DNA of 64,000 nt from Mustelus asterias (lineage: Eukaryota), in NCBI RefSeq assembly GCF_964213995.1, contig NC_135815.1, forward strand, positions 85,684,001-85,748,000, written 5' to 3'. Below are positions 5,585 through 60,107 of this stretch, in pieces. The notes beneath the pieces are model-generated. The model had not been told where the DNA came from. It made no database searches and saw nothing but the letters and a program-made list of their open reading frames with translations. Position 1 is the stretch's first letter. Each line of letters opens with the position of its first letter. The position numbers and the translations under genes are program-made.

Positions 5585-8500
5585 AAAGGTTAAAGTTTAT
5601 TTATTAGTCTCGAGGAGGCTTACATTAACACCAATGAAATTTTTTTTATTTCAAATATTCAAATATTCATTTAAAAAAATTCTCAAATAAGCCATTGCAA
5701 AACGACATATCCAATAATTACAAACAGCGTAAAAAAAGACCATTCATTTTTACAATACTACACGATGTTCATTTACAGGACATTGCATTAATTTCATTTC
5801 AGTACTTGAAACTATATACATTCATTAGGTTTTACTGTGTGCTGTTTTTCAGATTAGCACACAGTTACGCAGTCCGAGGGTGTTCTGCAGTTACCAGGCC
5901 CTCGGTCTGCCTCGGCTGAAAAGCTTTACACGGTGGCCTTTCCCCTTTGTGGCAGCTGCCCCAAGCTTGAGCGGGTCCCTCAGCACGTAGTCCTGGACCT
6001 TGGAATGTGCCAGTCTGCAACACTCGGTCGAGGACAAATCTTTCAACTGGAAGATCAGCAAGCTTCGGGTGGACCAAAGTGTGTCCTTCACCGAGTTGAT
6101 GACCCTCCAGCAGCAGTTGATATTTGTCTCGGTGTGCGTCCCTGGAAACAGCCCGTAGAGCACAGAGTCCTACATCACAGAGCTGTTCGGGATGAACCTC
6201 GACAAATACCACTGCATCTCACTCCAGACCTTCTTTGCAAAGGCACATTCCAAAAGGAGATGTGTGACCGTCTCATCACCCCCGCAGCCGCGTCGAGGGC
6301 AGCGTGCAGTGGTGTTGAGACCTCGAGCATGCATAAAAGATCTGACGGGAAGTGCCCTTCTCGCCACCAGCCAAGCCAGATCTTGGTGCTTGTTTGTGAG
6401 TTCTGGTGATGAGGCATTCTGCCAGATGTCACTGACAGTTTGCTCAGGGAACCATCCGACAGGATCCTCCATCTCCGTTTCTCTCAGGGCCTCAAGGACA
6501 TTACGTGCTGACGACTGCTTGATCGCCATGTGGTCAAAGGTGTGTTTTCGGAAAAATTTCTCCACGAAGGACAGATGCTGCAGTACAGTCCAACTACTTG
6601 GAGCATTCCGCGGCAGTGTGGCCAGACCCGTCCTCCGCAACACTTGGGACAGGTAGAACCTCAAAACGTTGTGGCACTTGCTGTTAGCATACCGAGGATC
6701 TACACACAGCTTGATGCAGCCGCACACAAAGGTGGCCATCAGGATGAGGGTGGCGTTGGGAACGTTTTTCCCTCCTTTTTCCAGAGATTTGTGCATCGCT
6801 TCCCTCTGGACACGATCCATCTTTAATCTCCATATAAATTTGAAGATAGCCTGGGTGACTGCTGCTGCGCAGGATTTGGGAATAGGCCAGACCTGCGCCA
6901 CGTACAACAACATGGACAGTACCTCACACTGGATGACCAGGTTTTTTCTGGTGATAGAGAGGGAGCGTTGCTCCCACAAGCCCAATTTTTGCCTCACTTT
7001 TGCAATGCACTCTTCCCAGTTTTTGGCACATGCCCCTGGCGCTCCAAACCATATCCCCAGCACCTTAAGATAGTCTGCCCTGACAGCGAGGGGACAAAGG
7101 ATCTGTCAACCCAGTTACCAAAGAACATGGCCTCGCTCTTACCCCGGTTGATTTTGGCTCCCGAGGCCCGCTTGAACTGCTCACAGACTTGGAGAAGCCT
7201 GCGAACAGACGAGGGGTCCGAGCAGAAGACAGCCAGGTCATCCATGTAGAGGGAGGCTTTGACCTGCGTGCCTCCGCTGCCTGGGATGGTAACCCCTTTG
7301 ATGCCTGGGTCCCTTCTGAGGGCCTCGGCAAAGGGTTCAATGCAACACACAAAAAGGATGGAGGAGAGAAGGCAGCCCTGTCTGACTCCAGACCTGATCT
7401 GAAACCTATCTGATTCCCACCCATTGATTGAAACTGCGCTACTGATGTCTGTGTAGAGCAGTTGGATCCAATTGCAGATTCCCTCCCCAAAGCCCATTTT
7501 GGAGAGCACATCCATCATGTAGCTGTGCAATATTCTGGCAAACGCCTTCTCCTGGTCTAGGCTGATGAGGCAGGTATCCACCTGCCTGTCCTGCACGTAG
7601 GCGATTGTATCCGTGAGTAGCACGAGGCTATCAGAGATCTTCCTGGCGGGTACAGCACAGGTTTGATCAGGATGGATCACTGACCCCAGGGCAGACTTGA
7701 CCCGGTTGGCGATGACCTTGGGCTAGAATTTTATAGTCCACGTTCAATAGTGAAATGGGTTGCCAATTTCTAATTTCTTCCCTTTCCCCCTTCTGCTTGT
7801 AGATGAGGGTAATGATGCCTTTCCTCATGGATTCTGACATGCTGCCTTCCAGAAGCATACTCTTGTATACTTCCAGCAGGTCCGGGCCCGTCAACTCCCA
7901 CAACGCCGAGTAAAACTCAGCCGGTAAGCCATCGCTTCCGGGAGTTTTACCCTTCTGAAAGGACTCGACAGCCTTTGTCAGCTCATCCAGAGATACCAGT
8001 CTGTCCAGGCTCTCCCGCTCGCCGTCGTCTGAGACCCGTGTGAAAGATGACAGGAAAGACTGGGAGGCCGTGCTGTCTGTTGGCTTCAGGTCATACATTC
8101 CAGCATAGAAGGATTTGCAGATCCTCAGAATGTCAGACTGCGATGACCTTACAGAGCCATCTTCTTCCTTCAGGCTGCTGATCACAGAGGTTTCTCTGTG
8201 CACCTTTTGGAAGAAGAAATGCGAGCACGTTTCATCCTGCTCCACGGAGCGGACCCTGGATCAGAAGATGACCTTGGAGGCCTCCGAGGCAAAGAGTGAG
8301 GCTTGCTGGCTCTTCACCTCCCGGAGATCCTCCTTGACATCAACCCCCATCGACTGCAGTTGGAGTAGATTCTGCATGCTTTTCTGGAGTCGGGACATTT
8401 CCCCCCGTCTCTCCCTGGCCTTCTGAACTCCTTTGCGGATGAAGAACCTCTTGATGTTGTCCTTGATGGTTTCCCACCAGAGCGATGGAGACTCAAAGAA

Positions 8501-8635
8501 GGGTTTCACGGTTCTCCAACCGTGGTAAACCCTTTTAACACCAATGAAATTACTGTGAAAATCCCCTAGTCACCATAGTCCAGCGCCTGTTTGGGTACAC
8601 TGAGGGAGAATTTAGCATGGCCAATGCACCTAACA
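5585..8635 (-). mobile_element. SINE 3' portion (second tail type) split by the Tx1 insertion
   Basis: 5585-5641 joined to 8552-8635 reconstitutes the reverse complement of the SINE tail seen at 41070-41196. Confidence 0.75.
5642..8534 (-). mobile_element. 5'-truncated, frameshifted Tx1-clade non-LTR retrotransposon
   Basis: Successive ORF pieces with KTPGSDGLPAEFY, PISLLNVDYKILA, SLDQEKAF, GVRQGC, YMDD and a C-terminal CPRRGC..ETVTHLLLEC zinc knuckle. A-rich tail near 5642. 17-bp TSD ttaacaccaatgaaatt at 5625-5641 and 8535-8551. Confidence 0.9.
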
Positions 8636-22983: not shown

Positions 22984-24191
22984 CCTGTAATATTACCCAC
23001 AGCCACTCACTTGCCATTCTTGTGACCTCCACGGACTCAAAGACTTAACTATTAATCATGGTTATCTGACCATTCCCTCCACTTGACCTTCCACAATTCC
23101 TCCCCCATTCGCCCATCAGTTCTGAAAGAAAGTGTCCAAACCCCAATCCCCCCCCACACCCCACTCACCAGCTCTCTCCCTAACTTTGTCTGCTCCGACC
23201 TTCCATTCAACACGATCCCTTTGATGCCGGCAAATGCCTCGATTATTCTCTTATCTCTGCCACTGTCTTTGCTTCCCACAAATTGTTAATTGTCTCCCTG
23301 TCACCCTCAACCCACCCCTCCCAAACATGTGCAATCTCCAGACGCAGCATGTTATCAGCATAACTAGCTGGGTCATCCATTACTTTTAGAATTGCCGAAA
23401 ATTTACAACACAGACTGAGGCCATTCAACCCACGGTGTCGATGTTAGTTGAAGAAGAGCTACCCAGCCTGATCCCACCTTCCTGCACTTGGTCCACACCC
23501 CTGCAGAGTCACAGTTTTCATTTTACATTTTATTTGCACTTCCATATTTTACTTAAACTTACATTCTTTTGAACTTTAGATAATTAACAGTGTAGAGAAC
23601 AACAGTGATATAGTTAATGTACAACACAGAAAACGGCTATTCAGCCTAATTGACCCATGGCGTTTATGCTCTCCGAGTTCCCTCCCACCTCTTGTTAATT
23701 TAACCGAATCAGCATAATCTTCTCTCTCATGTTTTATCCAGATTTCTCCTAAATGCATCTGTGCTAATTGTCTGAGCTGCTACTTATTGTTTTGACAACG
23801 TGCTAGTATTTCTAGCATTAGAGGGTGCTCCAATATACAAACGGACCGTTCAGCCTGTCAAATAGCACTAGTTATTGCCTCCATGAACGACCTAGTCTAA
23901 TCTCACTCTCCTGGCACACCTCCCAGTAGACCTCCAAGTATTATTTTAACTGTGCTTGTGTTGCCTCTACCCTCCATTTCAGACGGGTTCCCTATCGCCC
24001 TATGGGTAAAAAAAAATGTTTACACATTTCTCTTCTAACCCTTCTACCAAGTAGTTTAAATCTGAGTTTGGATTTTGACTCTTCTGCAATCTTATGGACC
24101 AATTTGATCTATTATGCTTGTTATGAGATTTGGTCATGTTGTATTCTGAAGATTTTGGATTTTTAAAAATTGGTTTTTAGATGTTGCATTT

Positions 24192-24524
24192 TTTTAATAC
24201 TTTTCCAATTCAATCAAATCAAATCCAATTCAGAGTCTCAACAAGTTGAGACATTTCAGATCCAGGCTGACAAGACAGGACGGGAGACCAAAACCACCCT
24301 GTCCTGGGCCTGATCTACATGAGTCAAGCTGATTGGAGAAGGGGGAGGATCCTCCTCCAAGACTTGAGCTCATTTGCATCTTAGCCAAAAGGCCGAGATG
24401 CTGCTTTTAAAAATTGCTTCATATGAAACATATGAAGCCTCAGCGTAACCCAATGACCTCAACCAAGTGCGGCCGACAATGGGGTGCCGACACTACACTT
24501 GATCTTAGCCAAAAGGCCGAGAAG
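24192..24524 (-). mobile_element. U2 snRNA-headed short retroposon (candidate SINEU / U2-Keno chimera)
   Basis: The minus strand begins with U2 nt 5-37 (24524-24492), has a second U2 nt 7-27 copy (24398-24378), ends in an A-tail, and is flanked by the 9-bp TSD gttgcattt (24183-24191, 24524-24532). Confidence 0.85.
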
Positions 24525-26073
24525 TTGCATTTGCTACAGCTGAGTGGCTTGCTTGGTCATTTCAAAGCATAGTTAAGAGTCAAATACATTGATGTGTGGG
24601 ATTGGTGTCACATGTAGGTCAGACTTGGTGAAAATGGCCGATATTTTCTCTATAAGACCTGAGTGAAACAGTTGGGTTTTTACAACAATCATCCAGCATC
24701 CTGTTCATTTTTACTGATGCCAGCTTCTTTTTCCCAGAGCTTTTGAAAACAAGTCAAATTCTCAAACTGCTTTGGTGGATTTTCAACTCAGGTTCTTTAT
24801 ATTAGCAGTCTAATATAACTACTGCACTACCCTAGATATGCTGGGGTAGTTCATCAGCTATTATAAGCATTATTATAAGTTTGACGTGCTTCCAGGGTAT
24901 TTTAATATTAGAACTTTTCCAAACTTTCGTATAGGTCAAATGGTCACACAATCCAAGTTCTTTCTTTCTGGTTTTTGTAACTTGTGAATTGACAGCTACC
25001 TAACACTTGCAATGGCATAGCTGTTTTAAGGGAAAGAACACTGCGTTTTAATTTACATTTTATTTGTACTTTAAACTGACATTCCTTTAAACTTTAGATA
25101 ATTAACAGTGTAGAGAACAACAGTGATTTAGTTAATGTACAACATAAAAAAGGCTATTCAATCATGGTGTTCCTGCTCTACATGAGTCCCCTTCTACCCG
25201 TCCTTCATTTAACCAAATCAACATAACTTCCTATTCCTTTCTCCCTCGTTTTAATCGAGCTTTCTCTAAAATGCATCTGTGCTATTTGCCTCAACTGTTA
25301 CTTATTGTTTTGACGACATGCTAGTATTTCTAGAATCAGAGGATGCTCCAGTTTGCAAATTGACCATTCAGCCCATTAAATCTGCACCAGTCATTGCCTC
25401 CATGAGCCATGTAGTCTAATCCCACTCTCCTTGCACACCAACCTCACCCCCCCCTCCCCCATCCCAGCCAATAACTTTCAACATTCCTCTTTCCCGAGGA
25501 TTTTATTGGGATTTATGTATTCTGCTGCAACAGTAGCTTGTGGCAGAAGATTCTACATTCTAACCAGCCCTTTAATTCTTTTTCATATTTCCGGTTTACC
25601 AAGGCACAAGGGGAAACCTCTGAGCAGTGGAGGCGATACAGACAAGGGCCACGAGGCTGATCCCTGGTGTCAGAGGACTGAGTTGTCAGGAAAAGTTAGA
25701 AAAACTTGGACCCTTCAGTCTTTGAAAGTAGGTGAATGAGAGGACACATTATTGAAGCATAGGAGACACTAAGTGCAATAGAAATAGGTCATCCTGAGCA
25801 TTTTTTCACCACGGATGGAGGGCAAAAAGATAAATCGACACAAGGACTGGTGTCAAAAATACTTCACGCATACAATGACCAATGCTTGAAAAGCCTCGAG
25901 ATAGAAGTATCAATAAAAGCTCAGAAGCCAGTTAGGCTCTATTTAGGGGTGACACAGGAGGGACTATAGACCCTCTGGGGAAGATGAGGTAGATTGACCC
26001 CCCCCCCTCATCTGTATTAACCTTTCATAAGCACAGTTAGAAAGAGCTGGCCTTAATATTTCCTCTCCCTTCT

Positions 26074-34543: not shown

Positions 34544-37465
34544 CTAGACCAATCGTTTGTATCCCTCCATTCCCAGACTGCTCATGTGACTATCCAGGTA
34601 AGTCTTAAACGATGTCAGCGTGCCTGCCTCCACCACCCTACTTGGCAGCGCATTCCAGGCCCCCACCACCCTCTGTGTAAAAAACGTCCCTCTGATGTCT
34701 GAGTTATACTTCGCCCCTCTCAGCTTGAGCCCGTGACCCCTCGTGATCGTCACCTCCGACCTGGGAAAAAGCTTCCCACTGTTCACCCTATCTATACCCT
34801 TCATAATCTTGTATACCTCTATTAGATCTCCCCTCATTCTCCGTCTTTCCAAGGAGAACAACCCCAGTCTACCCAATCTCTCCTCATAGCTAAGACCCTC
34901 CATACCAGGCAACATCCTGGTAAACCTTCTCTGCACTCTCTCCAATGCCTCCACGTCCTTCTGGTAGTGCGGCGACCAGAACTGGACGCAGTACTCCAAA
35001 TGCGGCCTAACCAGCGTTCTATACAGCTGCATCATCAGACTCCAGCTTTTATACTCTATACCCCGTCCTATAAAGGCAAGCATACCATATGCCTTCTTCA
35101 CCACCTTCTCCACCTGTGTTGCCACCTTCAAGGATTTGTGGACTTGCACACCTAGGTCCCTCTGTGTTTCTATACTCCTGATGACTCTGCCATTTATTGC
35201 ATAACTCCTCCCTACATTATTTCTTCCAAAATGCATCACTTCGCATTTATCCGGATTAAATTCCATCTGCCACCTCTCCGCCCAATTTTCCAGCCTATCT
35301 ATATCCTGCTGTATTGCCCGACAATGCTCTTCGCTATCCGCAATTCCAGCCATCTTTGTGTCATCCGCAAACTTGCTGATTACACCAGTTACACCTTCTT
35401 CCAAATCATTTATATATATCACAAATAGCAGAGGTCCCAGTACAGAGCCCTGCGGAACACCACTGGTCACAGACCTCCAGCCGGAAAAAGACCCTTCGAC
35501 CACTACCCTCTGTCTCCTATGGCCAAGCCAGTTCTCCACCCATCGAGCCACTTCTCCTTGTATCCCATGAGCCTTAACCTTCTTAACCAACCTGCCATGT
35601 GGGACTTTGTCAAATGCCTTACTGAAATCCATATAGACGACATCCACGGCCCTTCCTTCATCAACCGTTTTTGTCACTTCCTCAAAAAACTCCACCAAAT
35701 TTGTAAGGCACGACCTCCCTCTTACAAAACCATGCTGTCTGTCACTAATGAGATCGTTCCGTTCTAAATGCACATACATCCTGTCTCTAAGAATCCTCTC
35801 CAACAACTTCCCTACCACGGACGTCAAGCTCACCGGCCTATAATTTCCTGGGTTATCCCTGCTACCCTTCTTAAACAACGGGACCACATTCGCTATCCTC
35901 CAATCCTCAGGGACCTCACCCGTGTCCAAAGAAGCGACAAAGATTTCCGTCAGAGGCCCAGCAATTTCCTCTCTCGTCTCCCTGAGCAGTCGAGGATAGA
36001 TGCCATCAGGCCCTGGGGCTTTGTCAGTTTTAATGTTCCCTAAAAAACCTAACACTTCCTCTCTCGTAATGGAGATTTTCTCTAACGGGTCAACACCTCC
36101 CTCCGAGACACTCCCGGTTAACACGCCCCTCTCCTTCGTGAATACCGATGCAAAGTATTCATTTAGGATCTCCCCTATTCCCTTGGGTTCTAAGCATAAT
36201 TCCCCTCCTTTGTCCCTGAGAGGTCCGATTTTCTCCCTGACAACTCTTTTGTTCCTAACGTATGAATAGAATGCCTTAGGATTCTCCTTAATCCTGCCTG
36301 CCAAGAACATCTCGTGCCCTCTTTTTGCCCTTCTAACTCCCCGTTTGAGATCTTTCCTACTCTCTCTGTATTCCTCCAGAGCTCCATCTGTTTTCAGTTG
36401 CCTGGACTTAACGTACGCCTCCCTTTTCATTTTAATCAGATCCTCAATTTCCCTGGTTATCCACGGCTCTCGAATCCTACCTTTCCTATCTTTCCTTTTT
36501 ACAGGCACATGCCTATCCTGCAGCCTTATCAATAGTTCCTTAAAAGACTCCCACATGCCAGACGCGGACTTACCCTCGAACATCCTCTCCCAATCAACAT
36601 CCACCAATTCCTGCCTAATCCGGCTATAGTCAGCCTTCCCCCAATTTAGCACCCTGCCCGTAGGACAGCACTCATCCTTGTCCATTACTATCCTAAAGTT
36701 AACAGAGTTGTGGTCACTATTTGCCACATGTTCCCCTACCGAAACTTTGACGACCTGACCGGGCTCATTTCCCAGAACTAGGTCCAGTATAGCCCCCTCT
36801 CTAGTCGGGCTATCTACATACTGTTCCAAAGAACCTTCCAGTACGCATTTTACAAATTCCTCCCCGTCCGGTCCCCCAGCTCTAAGCACTTTCCAGTCTG
36901 TGCCAGGGAAATTAAAGTCCCCCACTACAACAACCCTATGTTTTCTGCACCTATCCAGAATCTCCTGACATATCCTTTCCTCCACTTCCCGTGGGCTGTT
37001 GGGTGGTCTGTAGTACACCCCCAGCATAGTGACTGCACCCTTCCTGTTTCTGAGTTCCACCCACAGCGACTCGGTACATGACCCCTCTAAGTTGTCTACC
37101 CTCTGCACCGCGGTAATATGCTCCTTAACTAATATCGCTACTCCCCCACCTTTTTTAGCCCCTCCTCTGTCTCTCCTAAAACACTGATACCCCGGAATAT
37201 TCAGCTGCCAGTCCTGTCCTTTTAACCAAGTTTCCGTCACCGCAACCACATCCAAATTCCGCACAAGCATTAAGGCCCTAAGTTCGTCTGTTTTACCCGT
37301 TACACTCCTCGCATTGAAGCAGATGCACTCCAGACCTCCAGGCCCAGTCAGGTCCTCCTCCTCCAGAGTGCTCCTCTTCTTAGCTAGCCTTGCCTTGGCC
37401 CCCAGCTCGACCCCAGCCTCAGTATTTACTGACCTCCTGTTTTGTTCCCCACCCCCCTGCCACAC
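34544..37465 (-). CDS. CR1 ORF2: APE endonuclease plus reverse transcriptase (973 codons, GTG start)
   Basis: APE motifs CFNARS, VTETW, YRPP, GDFN, LDL, SDH. RT motifs [35 protein letters not shown]1 C-terminus RPHLEYCVQFWSP. Confidence 0.95.
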   Translation of the reverse strand: MWQGGGEQNRRSVNTEAGVELGAKARLAKKRSTLEEEDLTGPGGLECICFNARSVTGKTDELRALMLVRNLDVVAVTETWLKGQDWQLNIPGYQCFRRDRGGAKKGGGVAILVKEHITAVQRVDNLEGSCTESLWVELRNRKGAVTMLGVYYRPPNSPREVEERICQEILDRCRKHRVVVVGDFNFPGTDWKVLRAGGPDGEEFVKCVLEGSLEQYVDSPTREGAILDLVLGNEPGQVVKVSVGEHVANSDHNSVNFRIVMDKDECCPTGRVLNWGKADYSRIRQELVDVDWERMFEGKSASGMWESFKELLIRLQDRHVPVKRKDRKGRIREPWITREIEDLIKMKREAYVKSRQLKTDGALEEYRESRKDLKRGVRRAKRGHEMFLAGRIKENPKAFYSYVRNKRVVREKIGPLRDKGGELCLEPKGIGEILNEYFASVFTKERGVLTGSVSEGGVDPLEKISITREEVLGFLGNIKTDKAPGPDGIYPRLLRETREEIAGPLTEIFVASLDTGEVPEDWRIANVVPLFKKGSRDNPGNYRPVSLTSVVGKLLERILRDRMYVHLERNDLISDRQHGFVRGRSCLTNLVEFFEEVTKTVDEGRAVDVVYMDFSKAFDKVPHGRLVKKVKAHGIQGEVARWVENWLGHRRQRVVVEGSFSGWRSVTSGVPQGSVLGPLLFVIYINDLEEGVTGVISKFADDTKMAGIADSEEHCRAIQQDIDRLENWAERWQMEFNPDKCEVMHFGRNNVGRSYAINGRVIRSIETQRDLGVQVHKSLKVATQVEKVVKKAYGMLAFIGRGIEYKSWSLMMQLYRTLVRPHLEYCVQFWSPHYQKDVEALERVQRRFTRMLPGMEGLSYEERLGRLGLFSLERRRMRGDLIEVYKIMKGIDRVNSGKLFPRSEVTITRGHGLKLRGAKYNSDIRGTFFTQRVVGAWNALPSRVVEAGTLTSFKTYLDSHMSSLGMEGYKRLV

Positions 37466-38493
37466 TAGTTTAAATCCTGCCGAAACACTCGAGTAAAACT
37501 CCCAGCCAGGATATTTGCTCCCTTCCAGTTAAGGTGTAACCCATCCTTTCTGTACAGTTGCCATCCTGACTTGAAGATTTCCCAGTTATCTATGAATTTA
37601 AAACCCTCCCTCTTGCACCAGTCCTTTAGCCACGCATTCAACTGTAGAATCTCCCTGTTCCGAGCCTCACTTGCACTAGGCACCGGGAGCAGTCCAGAGA
37701 TTGCTACACTGGAGGTCTTACTTTTTAGCCTAGCACCCAACTCCCTGAATTTCTCTCGTATGACCCCCCTGCTCTTTCTACCTACATCATTTCCCCCAAT
37801 GTGTACAATCACATCCGTTTGACTACCTTCCTTTTTAAATACGCTTCCTACCCTCTCGGAGACATCCAGTACCCCGGCACCAGGGAGGCAGACTACCATC
37901 CTGGATTCTCGTTCAGTCCCACAGAAGCGCCTGTCCGTGTTTCTAACTATTGCGTCCCCCACAACTATCGCTCTCCTAAACCCCTTCTTTCCCTTCCGGA
38001 CCCCTGAGACTGTCCCCGTGGAGGCGATCTGGTCCTCGTGGCTTACCCCTGGAGGGTCATCCCCCTCCACAGAATCCAAAACAATATACCTATTGTGGAG
38101 GGGGACAACCACAGGGGATCCCTCCACAGACTGCTCACTCCCTTCCCTTCTCCCATCTGTTGCCCATCCCTTTCTCTTATGGGAGACTGCCACTGGGGTG
38201 CTTTCTGGCACATCACCCTTCTGACTATTACCCCTCCTAACCGTGACCCACGTGTCTTCCTTCCGAGACCCTGGTGTCACTACCTGACTATAACTTTTAT
38301 CTATGACTCTCTCATTTTCCCTAACTAAACTGAGTTCATCGAGCCTCAGCTCCAGCTCCCTTACACGATCCTTCAGGAGATGCAGTTCCACACATCTGGC
38401 ACAGATATGGACTTCCGGGAGGCAAGTTGTCTCCAGGAACTCCCACATCCCACACCGAATGCAGTATACTGGCCTCCCACTCATACCAGCCAT
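37465..38493 (-). CDS. CR1 ORF1: zinc finger, leucine zipper and SGNH/GDSL esterase-like domain (342 aa from first ATG)
   Basis: CIRC...HICARC, heptad LLKDRVRELELRLDEL, SGNH blocks IVVGDA / LPGAG / HIGGND / DGLH. Confidence 0.9.
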   Translation of the reverse strand: MAGMSGRPVYCIRCGMWEFLETTCLPEVHICARCVELHLLKDRVRELELRLDELSLVRENERVIDKSYSQVVTPGSRKEDTWVTVRRGNSQKGDVPESTPVAVSHKRKGWATDGRREGSEQSVEGSPVVVPLHNRYIVLDSVEGDDPPGVSHEDQIASTGTVSGVRKGKKGFRRAIVVGDAIVRNTDRRFCGTERESRMVVCLPGAGVLDVSERVGSVFKKEGSQTDVIVHIGGNDVGRKSRGVIREKFRELGARLKSKTSSVAISGLLPVPSASEARNREILQLNAWLKDWCKREGFKFIDNWEIFKSGWQLYRKDGLHLNWKGANILAGSFTRVFRQDLN

Positions 38494-38760
38494 GTCCTTT
38501 TTAGTTTTGGGGATAAAACAAAAAGGGGGTGTAACCGAAGAAAAACAAACAAACAACCTTCCTCGCCGAAGCCCTGTGAGCCAAAGCCCTTTTTAGCTCT
38601 CACTCTGTCCCCTGCTCACTCCACTGCCCGCTAACGACGCTGCCCGCTCAAAGGTGCGGCCTACTTTTAAACCCTCCAAAATCTTCCCAGGCTGCTGCTG
38701 GGCCTATTTCCTGTTTAGAAAAAAAAAAAGAACTGAAAAATAATTAAATAAATTAATTAC

Positions 38761-55517: not shown

Positions 55518-57316
55518 AGTGGGAGTTCTGTTCACAAACAGGGCATACAGAGACACAAACTCAATTTACAGAATAATGATTGGAATGCGATTCTTTACAG
55601 CTAATCAAGTCTTAAGGTACAGACAATGTGAGTGGAGAGAGCATTAAGCACAGGTTAAAGAGATGTGTATTGTCTCCAGACAGGACAGCCAGTGAGATTC
55701 TGCAAGTCCAGGCAGGTTGTGGGGGTTACAGACAGTGTAACATGAACACAAGATCCCAGTTGAGGCCATCCTCGTGTGCGGAACTTGGCTATCAGTCTCT
55801 GCTCAGCGACTCTGCGTTGTCGTGTGTCGTGAAGGCCGCCTTGGAGAACGCTTACCTGAAGATCAGAGGCCGAATGCCCATGACCGCTGAAGTGCTCCCC
55901 AACAGGAAGAGAACAGTCTTGCCTGCTGATTGTCGAGCGGTGTTCATTCATCCGTTGTCGTAGCGTCTGCACAGTTTCCCCAATGTACCATGCCTCGGGA
56001 CATCCTTTCCTGCAGCGTATCAGGTAGACAACGTTGGCCGAGTTGCAAGAGTAGGTACCATGTACCTGGTAGATGGTGTTCTCACGTGAGATGATGGCAT
56101 CCATGTCGATGATCCGGCACGTCTTGCAGAGGTTGCTGTGGCAGGGTTGTGTGGTGTCGTGGTCACTGTTCTCCTGAAGGCTGGGTAGTTTGCTGCGGAC
56201 AATGGTCTGTTTGAGGTTGTGCGGTTGTTTGAAGGCAAGAAGTGGGGGGTGTGGGGATGGCCTTGGCGAGCCGTTCGTCTTCATCAATGACATGTTGAAG
56301 GCTCCGGAGGAGATGTCGTAGCTTCTCCATTCTGGGGAAGTACTGGATGACGAAGGGTACTCTGTCCACCATGTCCCGTGTTTGTCTTCTGAGGAGGTCG
56401 GTGTGGTTTTTCGCTGTGGCGCGTCGGAACTGTCGATCGATGAGTCGAGCTCCATATCCTGTTCTTATGAGGGCATCTTTCAGCATCTGGAGGTGTCTGT
56501 TGTGATCCTCCTCATCCGAGCAGATCCTGTGTATTCGGAGGGCTTGTCCGTAGGGGATGGCTTCTTTAATGTGTTTAGGGTGGAAGCTGGAGAAGTGGAG
56601 CATCGTGAGGTTATCCGTGAGTTTGCAGTACAGTGAGGTGCTGAGGTGACCGTCCTTAATGGAGCCGCGTGTGTCCAAGAATGCAACCGATTCCGGAAAG
56701 TAGTCCATGGTGAGTCTGATGGTGGGATGGAACTTGTTGATATCATCATATAGTTGTTTCAGTGATTGTTCACCATGAGTCCAAAGGAAGAAAATGTCAT
56801 CGATGTATCTAGTGTATAGCATCGGTTGAAGGTCCTGTGCAGTGAAGAAGTCTTGTTCGAACCTGTGCATGAAGATGTTGGCAAATTGAGGTGCGAATTT
56901 GGTCCCCATGGCTGTTCCGTGTGTCTGGATGAAGAACTGGTTGTTGAAGGTGAAGACGTTGTGGTCCAGGATGAAGCGGATGAGTTGTAAAATTGCATCT
57001 GGAAACTGGCAGTTGTCGGCGTTGAGTACTGAGGCAGTTGCAGCAATGCCATCATCATGGGGGATGCTGGTGTAGAGTGCCGAGACATCCATTGTGACGA
57101 GGAGTGTTCCTGGTTCAACTGCTCCATGTGTGCTGAGTTTCTGTGGGAAGTCCGTAGTGTCACGACAAAAGCTGGAGGGAGTGTTTAATGCTCTCTCCAC
57201 TCACATTGTCTGTGCCTTTAAGACTTGATTAGCTGTAAAGAATCACATTCCAATCATTATTCTGTAAATTGAGTTTGTGTCTCTGTATGCCCTGTTTGTG
57301 AGCAGATCTCCCACTC

Positions 57317-60030: not shown

Positions 60031-60107
60031 GTTAAGATGGCTTAGCAGTCTATGGTGCCGCGTTCAAGTCACGGTCTTGACTCTGGGTTCGAATCCCACT
60101 TCTGACA
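60031..60107 (+). pseudogene. tRNA-Leu pseudogene
   Basis: gttaagatggcttagcagtctatggtgccgcgttcaagtcacggtct..gggttcgaatcccacttctgaca resembles vertebrate tRNA-Leu(CAG/CAA). Intact B box, mutated D arm, shortened variable arm, A-run about 25 nt downstream. Confidence 0.75.

Follow-up and report, generated by a model that had tools for sequence, protein, structure and literature searches.

A dispersed U2-headed SINE family in Mustelus asterias and its probable passage through U2 genes

We analysed a stretch of 64,000 nucleotides (nt) from Mustelus asterias (RefSeq assembly GCF_964213995.1, contig NC_135815.1, positions 85,684,001 to 85,748,000 of the forward strand; hereafter the window), which carries on its minus strand, at 24192..24524, a young non-coding copy of 333 bp of a short interspersed element (SINE) whose 5' end corresponds to nt 5 of the small nuclear RNA (snRNA) U2. 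We consider it probable that this copy arose recently within a U2-headed SINE family that has as its sources U2 genes converted by homing and transcribed from +1 of the U2 promoter, and whose RNA is pasted and scattered by a long interspersed element (LINE) of the Tx1 type. At the level of sequence, this reading is carried by a dispersed family with target site duplications (TSDs) and A-tails, a U2 site that is common to LINE and SINE, a degenerate version of that site at the dispersed copies, and seamless fusions of SINE copies to U2 upstream DNA. In the following, C and L numbers are our own handles.

The family, its target sites and the LINE

A 19-base motif of the SINE body has 5,734 exact matches in the genome (2,844 + 2,890; control 0), which is a lower bound on family size, and a genome DNA search with the element led from 3,033 candidates to 49 scored matches, the best 40 being 96-100% identical. 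An unbiased sample of 88 distinct loci on C1 was taken from the first 97 of 100 listed places (two overlapping loci were dropped). The 106 pieces of at least 100 bases in this sample start at U2 nt 1-5 (44), nt 6-16 (38), nt 17-40 (5) or later (19), U2 nt 1 being the start of many sister copies, and no shared upstream sequence was found among the copy flanks compared. A sequence-only reading of the window had proposed an snRNA-headed SINE with a junction fixed at U2 nt 37. The dispersed family with A-tails and individual TSDs was borne out by the copy counts and TSDs; the fixed junction was not. Among 113 near-full copies, the identity with U2 ends at nt 37 in 31, at nt 39 in 32, at nt 40 in 16 and at nt 32-36 or 38 in 27 (seven were unscored), and the junction thus varies between nt 32 and 40 by subfamily and equals an evolving hairpin apex.

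The alignment of these 113 copies revealed nested subfamilies: six clusters of at least three copies, which differ by 2-3% from their respective consensus and by as much as 16% from the window copy, and a loose oldest group of five copies, 21% from the window copy. The U2 head is without drift across the subfamilies, and it is the hairpin apices that change most visibly. Change in the sources appears to have outpaced the decay of the copies by far, which would be expected under repeated replacement by retrotransposition. Seven identical copies on C192, which lie in a tandem unit of 15-18 kb without U2 upstream DNA, were rejected as source loci, having been passively duplicated with the unit, and were counted once; this unit (L069-L070) carries one young SINE copy and another Tx1-like open reading frame (ORF). 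Close variants occur in sequencing runs of other organisms, where five rows, with two organism codes, held at least half of the words. With the 3' 220 bases of the SINE, variants were found in 51 and 78 contigs of two other organisms (the run type, RNA, is guessed), while one run gave 0 and a raw-read DNA run also gave 0, which is no test. These matches are not evidence of transcription.

The target was derived from the TSDs, which were obtained for 63 of 125 tails (median 15 bp) by automatic calls that contain some visible errors; setting aside 11 inner tandem copies left 52 sites. At these dispersed junctions, position -3 is A in 28, position -2 is G in 28 (p 8e-7), position -1 is a pyrimidine in 40 (p 5e-5) and position +1 is A in 44, the last count being biased by the tail. 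The insertion site in U2 reads AGT/AT, and the dispersed target, AGY/A, is a loose version of it. A pattern for SINE tails that continue into U2 nt 39-48 gave 13 matches (control 0), 12 of them real and one, L197, looking like chance, and one of them lies in the main U2 array, with a 17-bp duplication of U2 nt 38-54. Insertion at U2 nt 23/24 was rejected (0 matches to the pattern), the actual site being nt 38/39.

The same reading had called for a U2-targeting Tx1-type LINE in this genome, and one is indeed present, inserted at U2 nt 38/39: in the U2 arrays on C24, a 5.6-kb LINE begins with U2 nt 5-35 and has U2 nt 38-191 behind it. Its ORF1 has zinc-knuckle and ZCCHC3-type domains, and its ORF2 an APE endonuclease, a reverse transcriptase (RT) and a zf-RVT domain. 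Its nearest family-named protein match is 'transposon TX1 uncharacterized 149 kDa protein' (48%), and a named Keno sequence is absent among the 120 matches listed. We call the LINE Keno-like, by its U2 site and APE endonuclease, because the same combination is given for Keno (PMC4640811), which like Utopia inserts at U2 nt 38/39. The LINE is also dispersed (916 candidates in the genome); the TSD follows a pyrimidine in six of the eight dispersed copies with a visible 5' end (by eye), and SINE and LINE occur at common sites in L026, L156 and L263. We infer that the SINE is mobilised by this Tx1-type LINE.

Several further arrangements of the LINE were observed. At L263 (C7:58.16 Mb), five LINE fragments and two SINEs follow each other in a train and have variants of one spacer in common. 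The window itself has a 5'-truncated copy of the Keno-like LINE at 5644-8536 (minus strand, 89% identical), 16 kb from the SINE. On C24:44.81-44.94 Mb (L061), a unit of 8,035 bp with an intact U2 gene and a LINE-interrupted one is present in ~15 tandem copies with identical LINE tails. Beside U2 genes (L062:7683-8870 and L066) lies a 1.2-kb U2-headed derivative of the LINE with an internal deletion and a short U1-like piece before it, which is possibly a second non-autonomous family.

U2 genes and the copies linked to their upstream DNA

A search with Rfam RF00004 recovered the main U2 gene (48 scored matches, each of them on C24). The SINE tails, when followed, led to a second one, which is 84-90% similar to the main gene (175.5 bits in Rfam) and forms a cluster of 448-bp units on C21:28.05-28.08 Mb (L251-L254), in which most units are interrupted by LINE or SINE, four genes are intact and internal inversions occur; two LINE copies and one SINE are seamlessly joined there at +1 behind U2 upstream DNA. 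The two U2 genes have in common a 10-of-12 motif near -54, which we take to be the position of the proximal promoter element. A search with the C21 upstream DNA gave 29 matches, of which nine belong to the cluster and 20 fall on 18 dispersed loci (L289 lies within the L287 locus). Eight of these 18 loci run into a SINE, five into a U2-headed LINE piece, and five hold distal parts only.

In all, U2 upstream DNA is fused to 11 SINE copies at 10 loci; these copies belong to several subfamilies, and for ten of them the upstream DNA is that of the second U2 variant. Copies in U2 genes, directly behind U2 upstream DNA, were thus found as had been predicted, and a one-off chimera is excluded, as subfamilies up to 16-21% apart sit behind U2 promoters. 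In the main array, one unit whose upstream DNA is intact has an internally deleted SINE at +1; two sequence patterns retrieved no other SINE copies behind the main U2 promoter. In five of the eight blocks in which U2 upstream DNA leads into a SINE, a single TSD pair of 10-18 bp encloses the block (by eye):

C14:62.23 Mb: TSD of 18 bp, block of about 1.66 kb with three SINEs
C6: TSD of 16 bp
C7:131.9 Mb: TSD of 13 bp
C2:160.60 Mb: TSD of 10 bp
C1:80.33 Mb: TSD of 10 bp, with a LINE tail at the end

Around the blocks on C8 (80.29 Mb), C11 and C18 no TSD pair was seen by eye. In the C14 block, 29 nt of upstream DNA come with the second SINE, behind a U2 duplication, and L199 has U2 pieces on both sides within its TSD. 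Since the TSD-bounded blocks contain U2 upstream DNA, it follows that the templates were located in U2 genes. With increasing subfamily age, the attached upstream DNA departs further from the present cluster (rho -0.81, p 0.015, n=8; of the 10 loci, the main-array copy and a locus with a mere 36 nt were left out), and so the templates appear to have lain in U2 genes through much of the family's history. The TSD-bounded blocks also show that U2 upstream or downstream DNA has been taken along to other chromosomes.

The cycle that we propose would run as follows. The U2-targeting Tx1-type LINE likely inserts the SINE at U2 nt 38/39. By annealing to the upstream half of the gene that has been cut, the U2 head of the cDNA would rebuild a full-length SINE under the promoter, in the way that annealing is postulated to rebuild the 5' end of R2 in 28S genes. 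Once embedded, the SINE is likely transcribed from the U2 promoter, with most transcripts starting at U2 +1, and its RNA is likely dispersed over the genome by the same LINE. The promoter-carrying blocks would stem from rare read-through that comes from array units further upstream, and these blocks could found new sources; the sources would turn over with the arrays, the body drifting and the head being reset to U2. The fold-back arm described below would hide the splicing-active part of the head, whose homology would also favour re-insertion in front of older copies. Because of their 5' ends, we infer that ordinary copies derive from transcripts that start at +1 of U2-embedded loci. A more far-reaching version, which we put forward tentatively as something short of an even bet, is that of a promoter-less homing SINE, independent of the crocodilian SINEUs, in which the head serves as homology arm, transcript start and landing pad, the arm silences the splicing activity of the head, and SINE and LINE export whole U2-promoter cassettes to other chromosomes, where they found sources outside the arrays.

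Re-insertion beside older copies was seen in the unbiased sample, where a second copy lies within 200 bases in 13 of 88 loci, compared with an expected 0.16-0.49 if the density of copies is set at one to three times that of the motif. A weak target of four bases cannot account for this excess. In same-strand pairs one locus-specific spacer is common to both copies, and the upstream copy is of the younger type in five of six pairs checked, as expected from the sequential use of one nick. Several new TSDs extend into the head of the old copy, and this suggests that head homology helps to finish integration; the excess, roughly 25- to 80-fold, bears on the role of homology in completing LINE-type integration and is relevant to retrotransposon-based gene insertion. 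Opposite-strand neighbours were observed at L101, L171, L176 and L162; at L101 the new copy sits inside the first hairpin of the older one, the reverse strand of which resembles the U2 target site.

Anatomy of the element and alternative explanations

All features that had been named from the window's letters were confirmed at their positions by comparison with a U2 gene of the same genome (L031). The head equals U2 nt 5-37 without mismatch (24524-24492), the inner piece of U2 (nt 7-27) lies at 24398-24378, the arms of the two hairpins at 24438-24429 / 24425-24416 and 24252-24245 / 24242-24235, and the palindrome at 24355-24344; an A-tail is present and the 9-bp direct repeats (24183-24191 and 24524-24532) are identical. 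Base 24524 is common to the TSD and U2 nt 5, which amounts to one base of microhomology. The features of the element are:

24192..24524, minus strand: SINE copy of the youngest subfamily sampled (genome DNA search and subfamily alignment)
24524..24532, plus strand: TSD copy on the 5' side of the element; the preceding bases, read on the element strand, fit the family target AGY/A
24183..24191, plus strand: TSD copy behind the A-tail
24492..24524, minus strand: head, exact U2 nt 5-37 (comparison with L031), presumably extending into the branch-site recognition region of U2
about 24491-24476, minus strand, within 24439..24491: variable hairpin apex
about 24475-24439, minus strand: fold-back arm with predicted pairing to the U2 head (fold prediction)
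24416..24438, minus strand: 10-bp hairpin, shorter in older subfamilies
24409..24415, minus strand: unpaired A-U5 stretch in an Sm-site-like position; the next base is A, not G, in 102 of 113 copies
24376..24401, minus strand: inner U2 stem-loop I, with a stem longer by 3 bp
24372..24379, minus strand: putative motif that we take to be octamer-type, exact in 99 of 113 copies
24321..24371, minus strand: hairpin module 1, which includes the palindrome
24258..24316, minus strand: hairpin module 2, which duplicates module 1 (with the older-subfamily consensus, the score is reached by 0 of 1000 shuffles)
24235..24252, minus strand: short perfect hairpin
24192..24234, minus strand: 3' end with pentamer-like short repeats, terminal motif and A-tail

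The Rfam U2 match of the element (41.4 bits, E 1e-6) is under the gathering score of 46, every family in the Rfam scan of the window stayed below its gathering score, and Rfam scans yielded no ribozyme or other Rfam family for the element. The minus-strand RNA of 337 nt has a predicted fold of -140.4 kcal/mol (z -10.5; 0 of 100 shuffles equally stable), and the six subfamily consensus lines have z values of -3.9 to -8.9 in a rougher test with 25 shuffles each. The head is predicted to pair with the downstream arm instead of keeping stem-loop I, in a duplex of -25.7 to -40.0 kcal/mol that is matched by 0-2 of 500 arm shuffles in each of eight groups. Such a duplex would cover the segment of U2 that we take to be its branch-site reader. 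The reverse complement of the U2 head was rejected as a sequence source of the body because the alignment is not significant, and so it is the pairing alone that points to an origin of the arm by inverted duplication. Over 116 pairs in eight groups (928 cells), 757 cells are unchanged, 45 have a one-sided consistent change, five a two-sided one, 52 are broken and 69 are gaps; the structure is kept across the family, and selection on structure is not proven.

With respect to the origin of the body, it had been claimed that it is a truncated piece of a LINE. In a SIDE-like form, the body would be a heavily diverged remnant of a U2-targeting LINE, from its 3' untranslated region (UTR) or its U2-headed 5' end, an explanation that concerns the origin only, is compatible with the proposed life cycle and seems unlikely to us. 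The last ~85 nt of SINE and LINE have collinear short matches (9 and 30 of 1000 shuffles reach the score), the median over 35 LINE tails is reached by 0-1 of 150 shuffles for four of seven SINE copies, and the LINE, too, starts with U2 nt 1-35 plus a fold-back. However, BLAST of the element against the 5.6-kb LINE returned U2 pieces only, the tail likeness is within the null for the other three copies, and the weak pairwise likeness was not confirmed by a profile of 16 LINE tails, in which the SINE ends reach at most 3.5 bits vs 4.1 bits for shuffles; the claim is thus not supported. The LINE 5' UTR was rejected as body source, as its alignment to the right arm of the SINE is not significant (17-394 of 500 shuffles reach the score in eight comparisons). 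An internally deleted, SINEU-3-like U2 was rejected as well (left arm vs U2 nt 41-125; 49-585 of 1000 shuffles reach the score). The terminal motif of the younger subfamilies is closer to the last bases of the LINE than that of the older ones, and the 3' end of the SINE is possibly converging on the tail of its partner.

Rather improbable, in our judgement, is a repair of the head, in which dispersed copies are read through from unrelated promoters, the RT of the LINE switches to U2 snRNA or to a U2-headed RNA at the 5' end, and the U2-embedded copies are by-products of targeting. It draws on copies with U2 pieces added at the 5' end (nt 12-45 in L258, nt 6-48 in L292 and nt 13-48 in L172), on the repeated switches that were favoured for SINEU-2 (Kojima 2015, PMC4494074), and on the youngest subfamily, for which sequence-pattern and upstream-DNA searches found no U2-embedded copy. 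Yet the junction follows the subfamily rather than varying copy by copy, the flanks compared have no shared non-U2 5' extensions, and blocks that contain U2 upstream DNA within their TSDs can only derive from templates in U2 genes.

An internal promoter is a very unlikely alternative: the octamer-type motif, together with a short match to U2 upstream DNA, would drive the element or the next tandem copy, or RNA polymerase III (Pol III) would do so. In Drosophila HeT-A, the promoter of one element drives the next copy in a tandem array; tandem SINE copies are frequent, the conserved octamer resembles motifs upstream of U1 genes in the same genome, and at L137 (one of 88 loci) a short piece of SINE tail stands just before the head. 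The U2-upstream match, however, is confined to young subfamilies and belongs to a hairpin arm, its distance to the start of the next copy is about 85-100 nt instead of about 60 nt, and a 5' extension by SINE tails is not general among the copies. Runs of 4-5 T in head and body should, moreover, stop Pol III (an argument of PMC4494074). A classical Pol III SINE was rejected since the head does not come from a Pol III gene with an internal promoter: no tRNA was found at the SINE locus, and the head, which has T-runs, gave no Rfam match to a Pol III gene (tRNA, 7SL, 5S). The idea of a single-event U2/mRNA chimera, or of processed pseudogenes that arose independently, has nothing beyond the U2 head in its favour and is refuted by the 5,734 motif matches, the shared body, the nested subfamilies and the individual TSDs, which leaves it a negligible chance.

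A number of observations weigh against the cycle through U2 genes. The promoter-carrying blocks prove read-through templates rather than transcription from +1, and with 8 loci vs at least 5,734 copies they are rare. For the youngest subfamily, to which the window copy belongs, neither U2-embedded nor promoter-linked copies were found, in searches whose exact patterns miss variants and in arrays that may be incomplete or individual-specific. The promoter copy in the main array was rejected as a proven source, as a search for its deletion gave one match, itself. An earlier and cruder measure of the link with age fell short of significance (rho 0.54, p 0.21, n=7), and old insertions decay in their promoter and SINE parts anyway. 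The U2 pieces added in L258, L292 and L172 indicate that template switching to U2 RNA may also occur. Covariation is modest, with 45 of 232 paired columns variable vs 27 of 101 unpaired ones, BLAST and the LINE-tail profile gave no clear tail homology of SINE and LINE, an unbroken ORF2 was present in none of four long LINE copies checked, and none of the sequencing runs listed with the element is recorded as RNA.

Around the SINE, a direct duplication (23516-23881 / 25046-25439; 76-77% identical, 1.5 kb apart) was found, and no empty site was seen because this duplication does not span the insertion point. Elsewhere in the window, six of the 17 ORFs scanned had Pfam matches, all to retroelement domains. 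A LINE with long open frames that is presumably CR1-like (34544-38592, minus strand) encodes an endonuclease-RT of 994 aa and an esterase-type ORF1 of 375 aa, and an element that we take to be Penelope-like (55655-57200, minus strand) has an RT and a weak GIY-YIG match. ARAGORN called a tRNA-Leu(CAA) at 60031-60107 (plus strand), which is a gene or a SINE head.

Comparison with known systems

The family has the features of the SINEU class: a U2-derived head, a non-coding length of less than 500 bp, poly(A), TSDs, many copies of one structure, and a target preference in common with a Tx1-type LINE. SINEUs have been found only in crocodilians (Kojima 2015, PMC4494074). The literature searched, which did not cover Repbase, Dfam and subscription journals, contained no such family outside crocodilians; nothing was found on promoter transduction of this kind in the literature looked up, and a term search of a shark SINE paper (PMC5499810) gave no mention of snRNA or Tx1. 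We therefore assign the element to a known class, for which a life cycle based on the U2 promoter here has support from the arrangement of copies and U2 upstream DNA.

The transcription of snRNA-headed SINEs has been called an open question, because U1 and U2 are without an internal promoter (PMC4494074), and in a 2018 paper from the same line of work these SINEs are still introduced as newly proposed. The use of the U2 promoter, if true, would answer how snRNA-headed elements are transcribed, and would constitute an snRNA-promoter life cycle for a vertebrate SINE, which was not found in the literature searched. The present family, which is young and abundant and has a candidate partner LINE, makes the matter testable, with named loci that have the SINE at U2 +1 and transduced blocks for subfamilies of different ages. 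SINE and LINE consume a small cluster of a variant U2 gene, and the family also points to a way in which snRNA promoters can spread through a genome.

The likeness to the crocodilian families SINEU-1 to SINEU-3 (PMC4494074) is drawn from published features, not from the body sequence. These elements are likewise short and non-coding, with a U2-derived head, more than one U2 piece, poly(A), TSDs, T-runs that speak against Pol III, a Tx1-type partner deduced from the target, no clear LINE tail and tandems that surround a TSD. Tandem SINEU-3 copies also occur around a TSD, but inside a repeated target. The target of SINEU is Mariner-N4_AMi and its partner Tx1-Mar, whereas here the U2 gene and a degenerate U2 site are used; the mutually unrelated flanks of the SINE copies compared speak against a single transposon target of that kind. 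For transcription, flanking promoters were suggested by Kojima (2015), while here copies stand at U2 +1 and U2 upstream DNA is exported. SINEU-1 has about 7,700 copies, which are old, SINEU-3 has 1,600 and SINEU-2 1,058, compared with at least 5,734 motif matches here and copies that are 98-99% alike.

With Keno and Utopia (PMC4640811) the LINE has in common that U2 resumes behind it from nt 38/39, and with Keno the APE endonuclease; the duplications of 17-21 bp in U2 are similar to the TSDs of 20 bp in reptile Utopia, for which a relaxed target specificity is described. Unlike Keno, the SINE is non-coding, and the LINE is widely dispersed and has a U2 head of its own. R2 and the R2/R1 SIDEs reside in their target, the 28S gene, and depend on its transcription (PMC3414825, PMC3774820); as in these systems, uniform 5' junctions would result from annealing of a co-transcribed target sequence, which has been postulated there. 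SIDEs, however, are internal deletions of LINEs that have a ribozyme and use Pol I and the rRNA genes. In the present family, the head is the 5' end of the target RNA itself, no ribozyme was detected, descent of the body from a LINE is unproven, and copies by the thousand are located away from the target gene.

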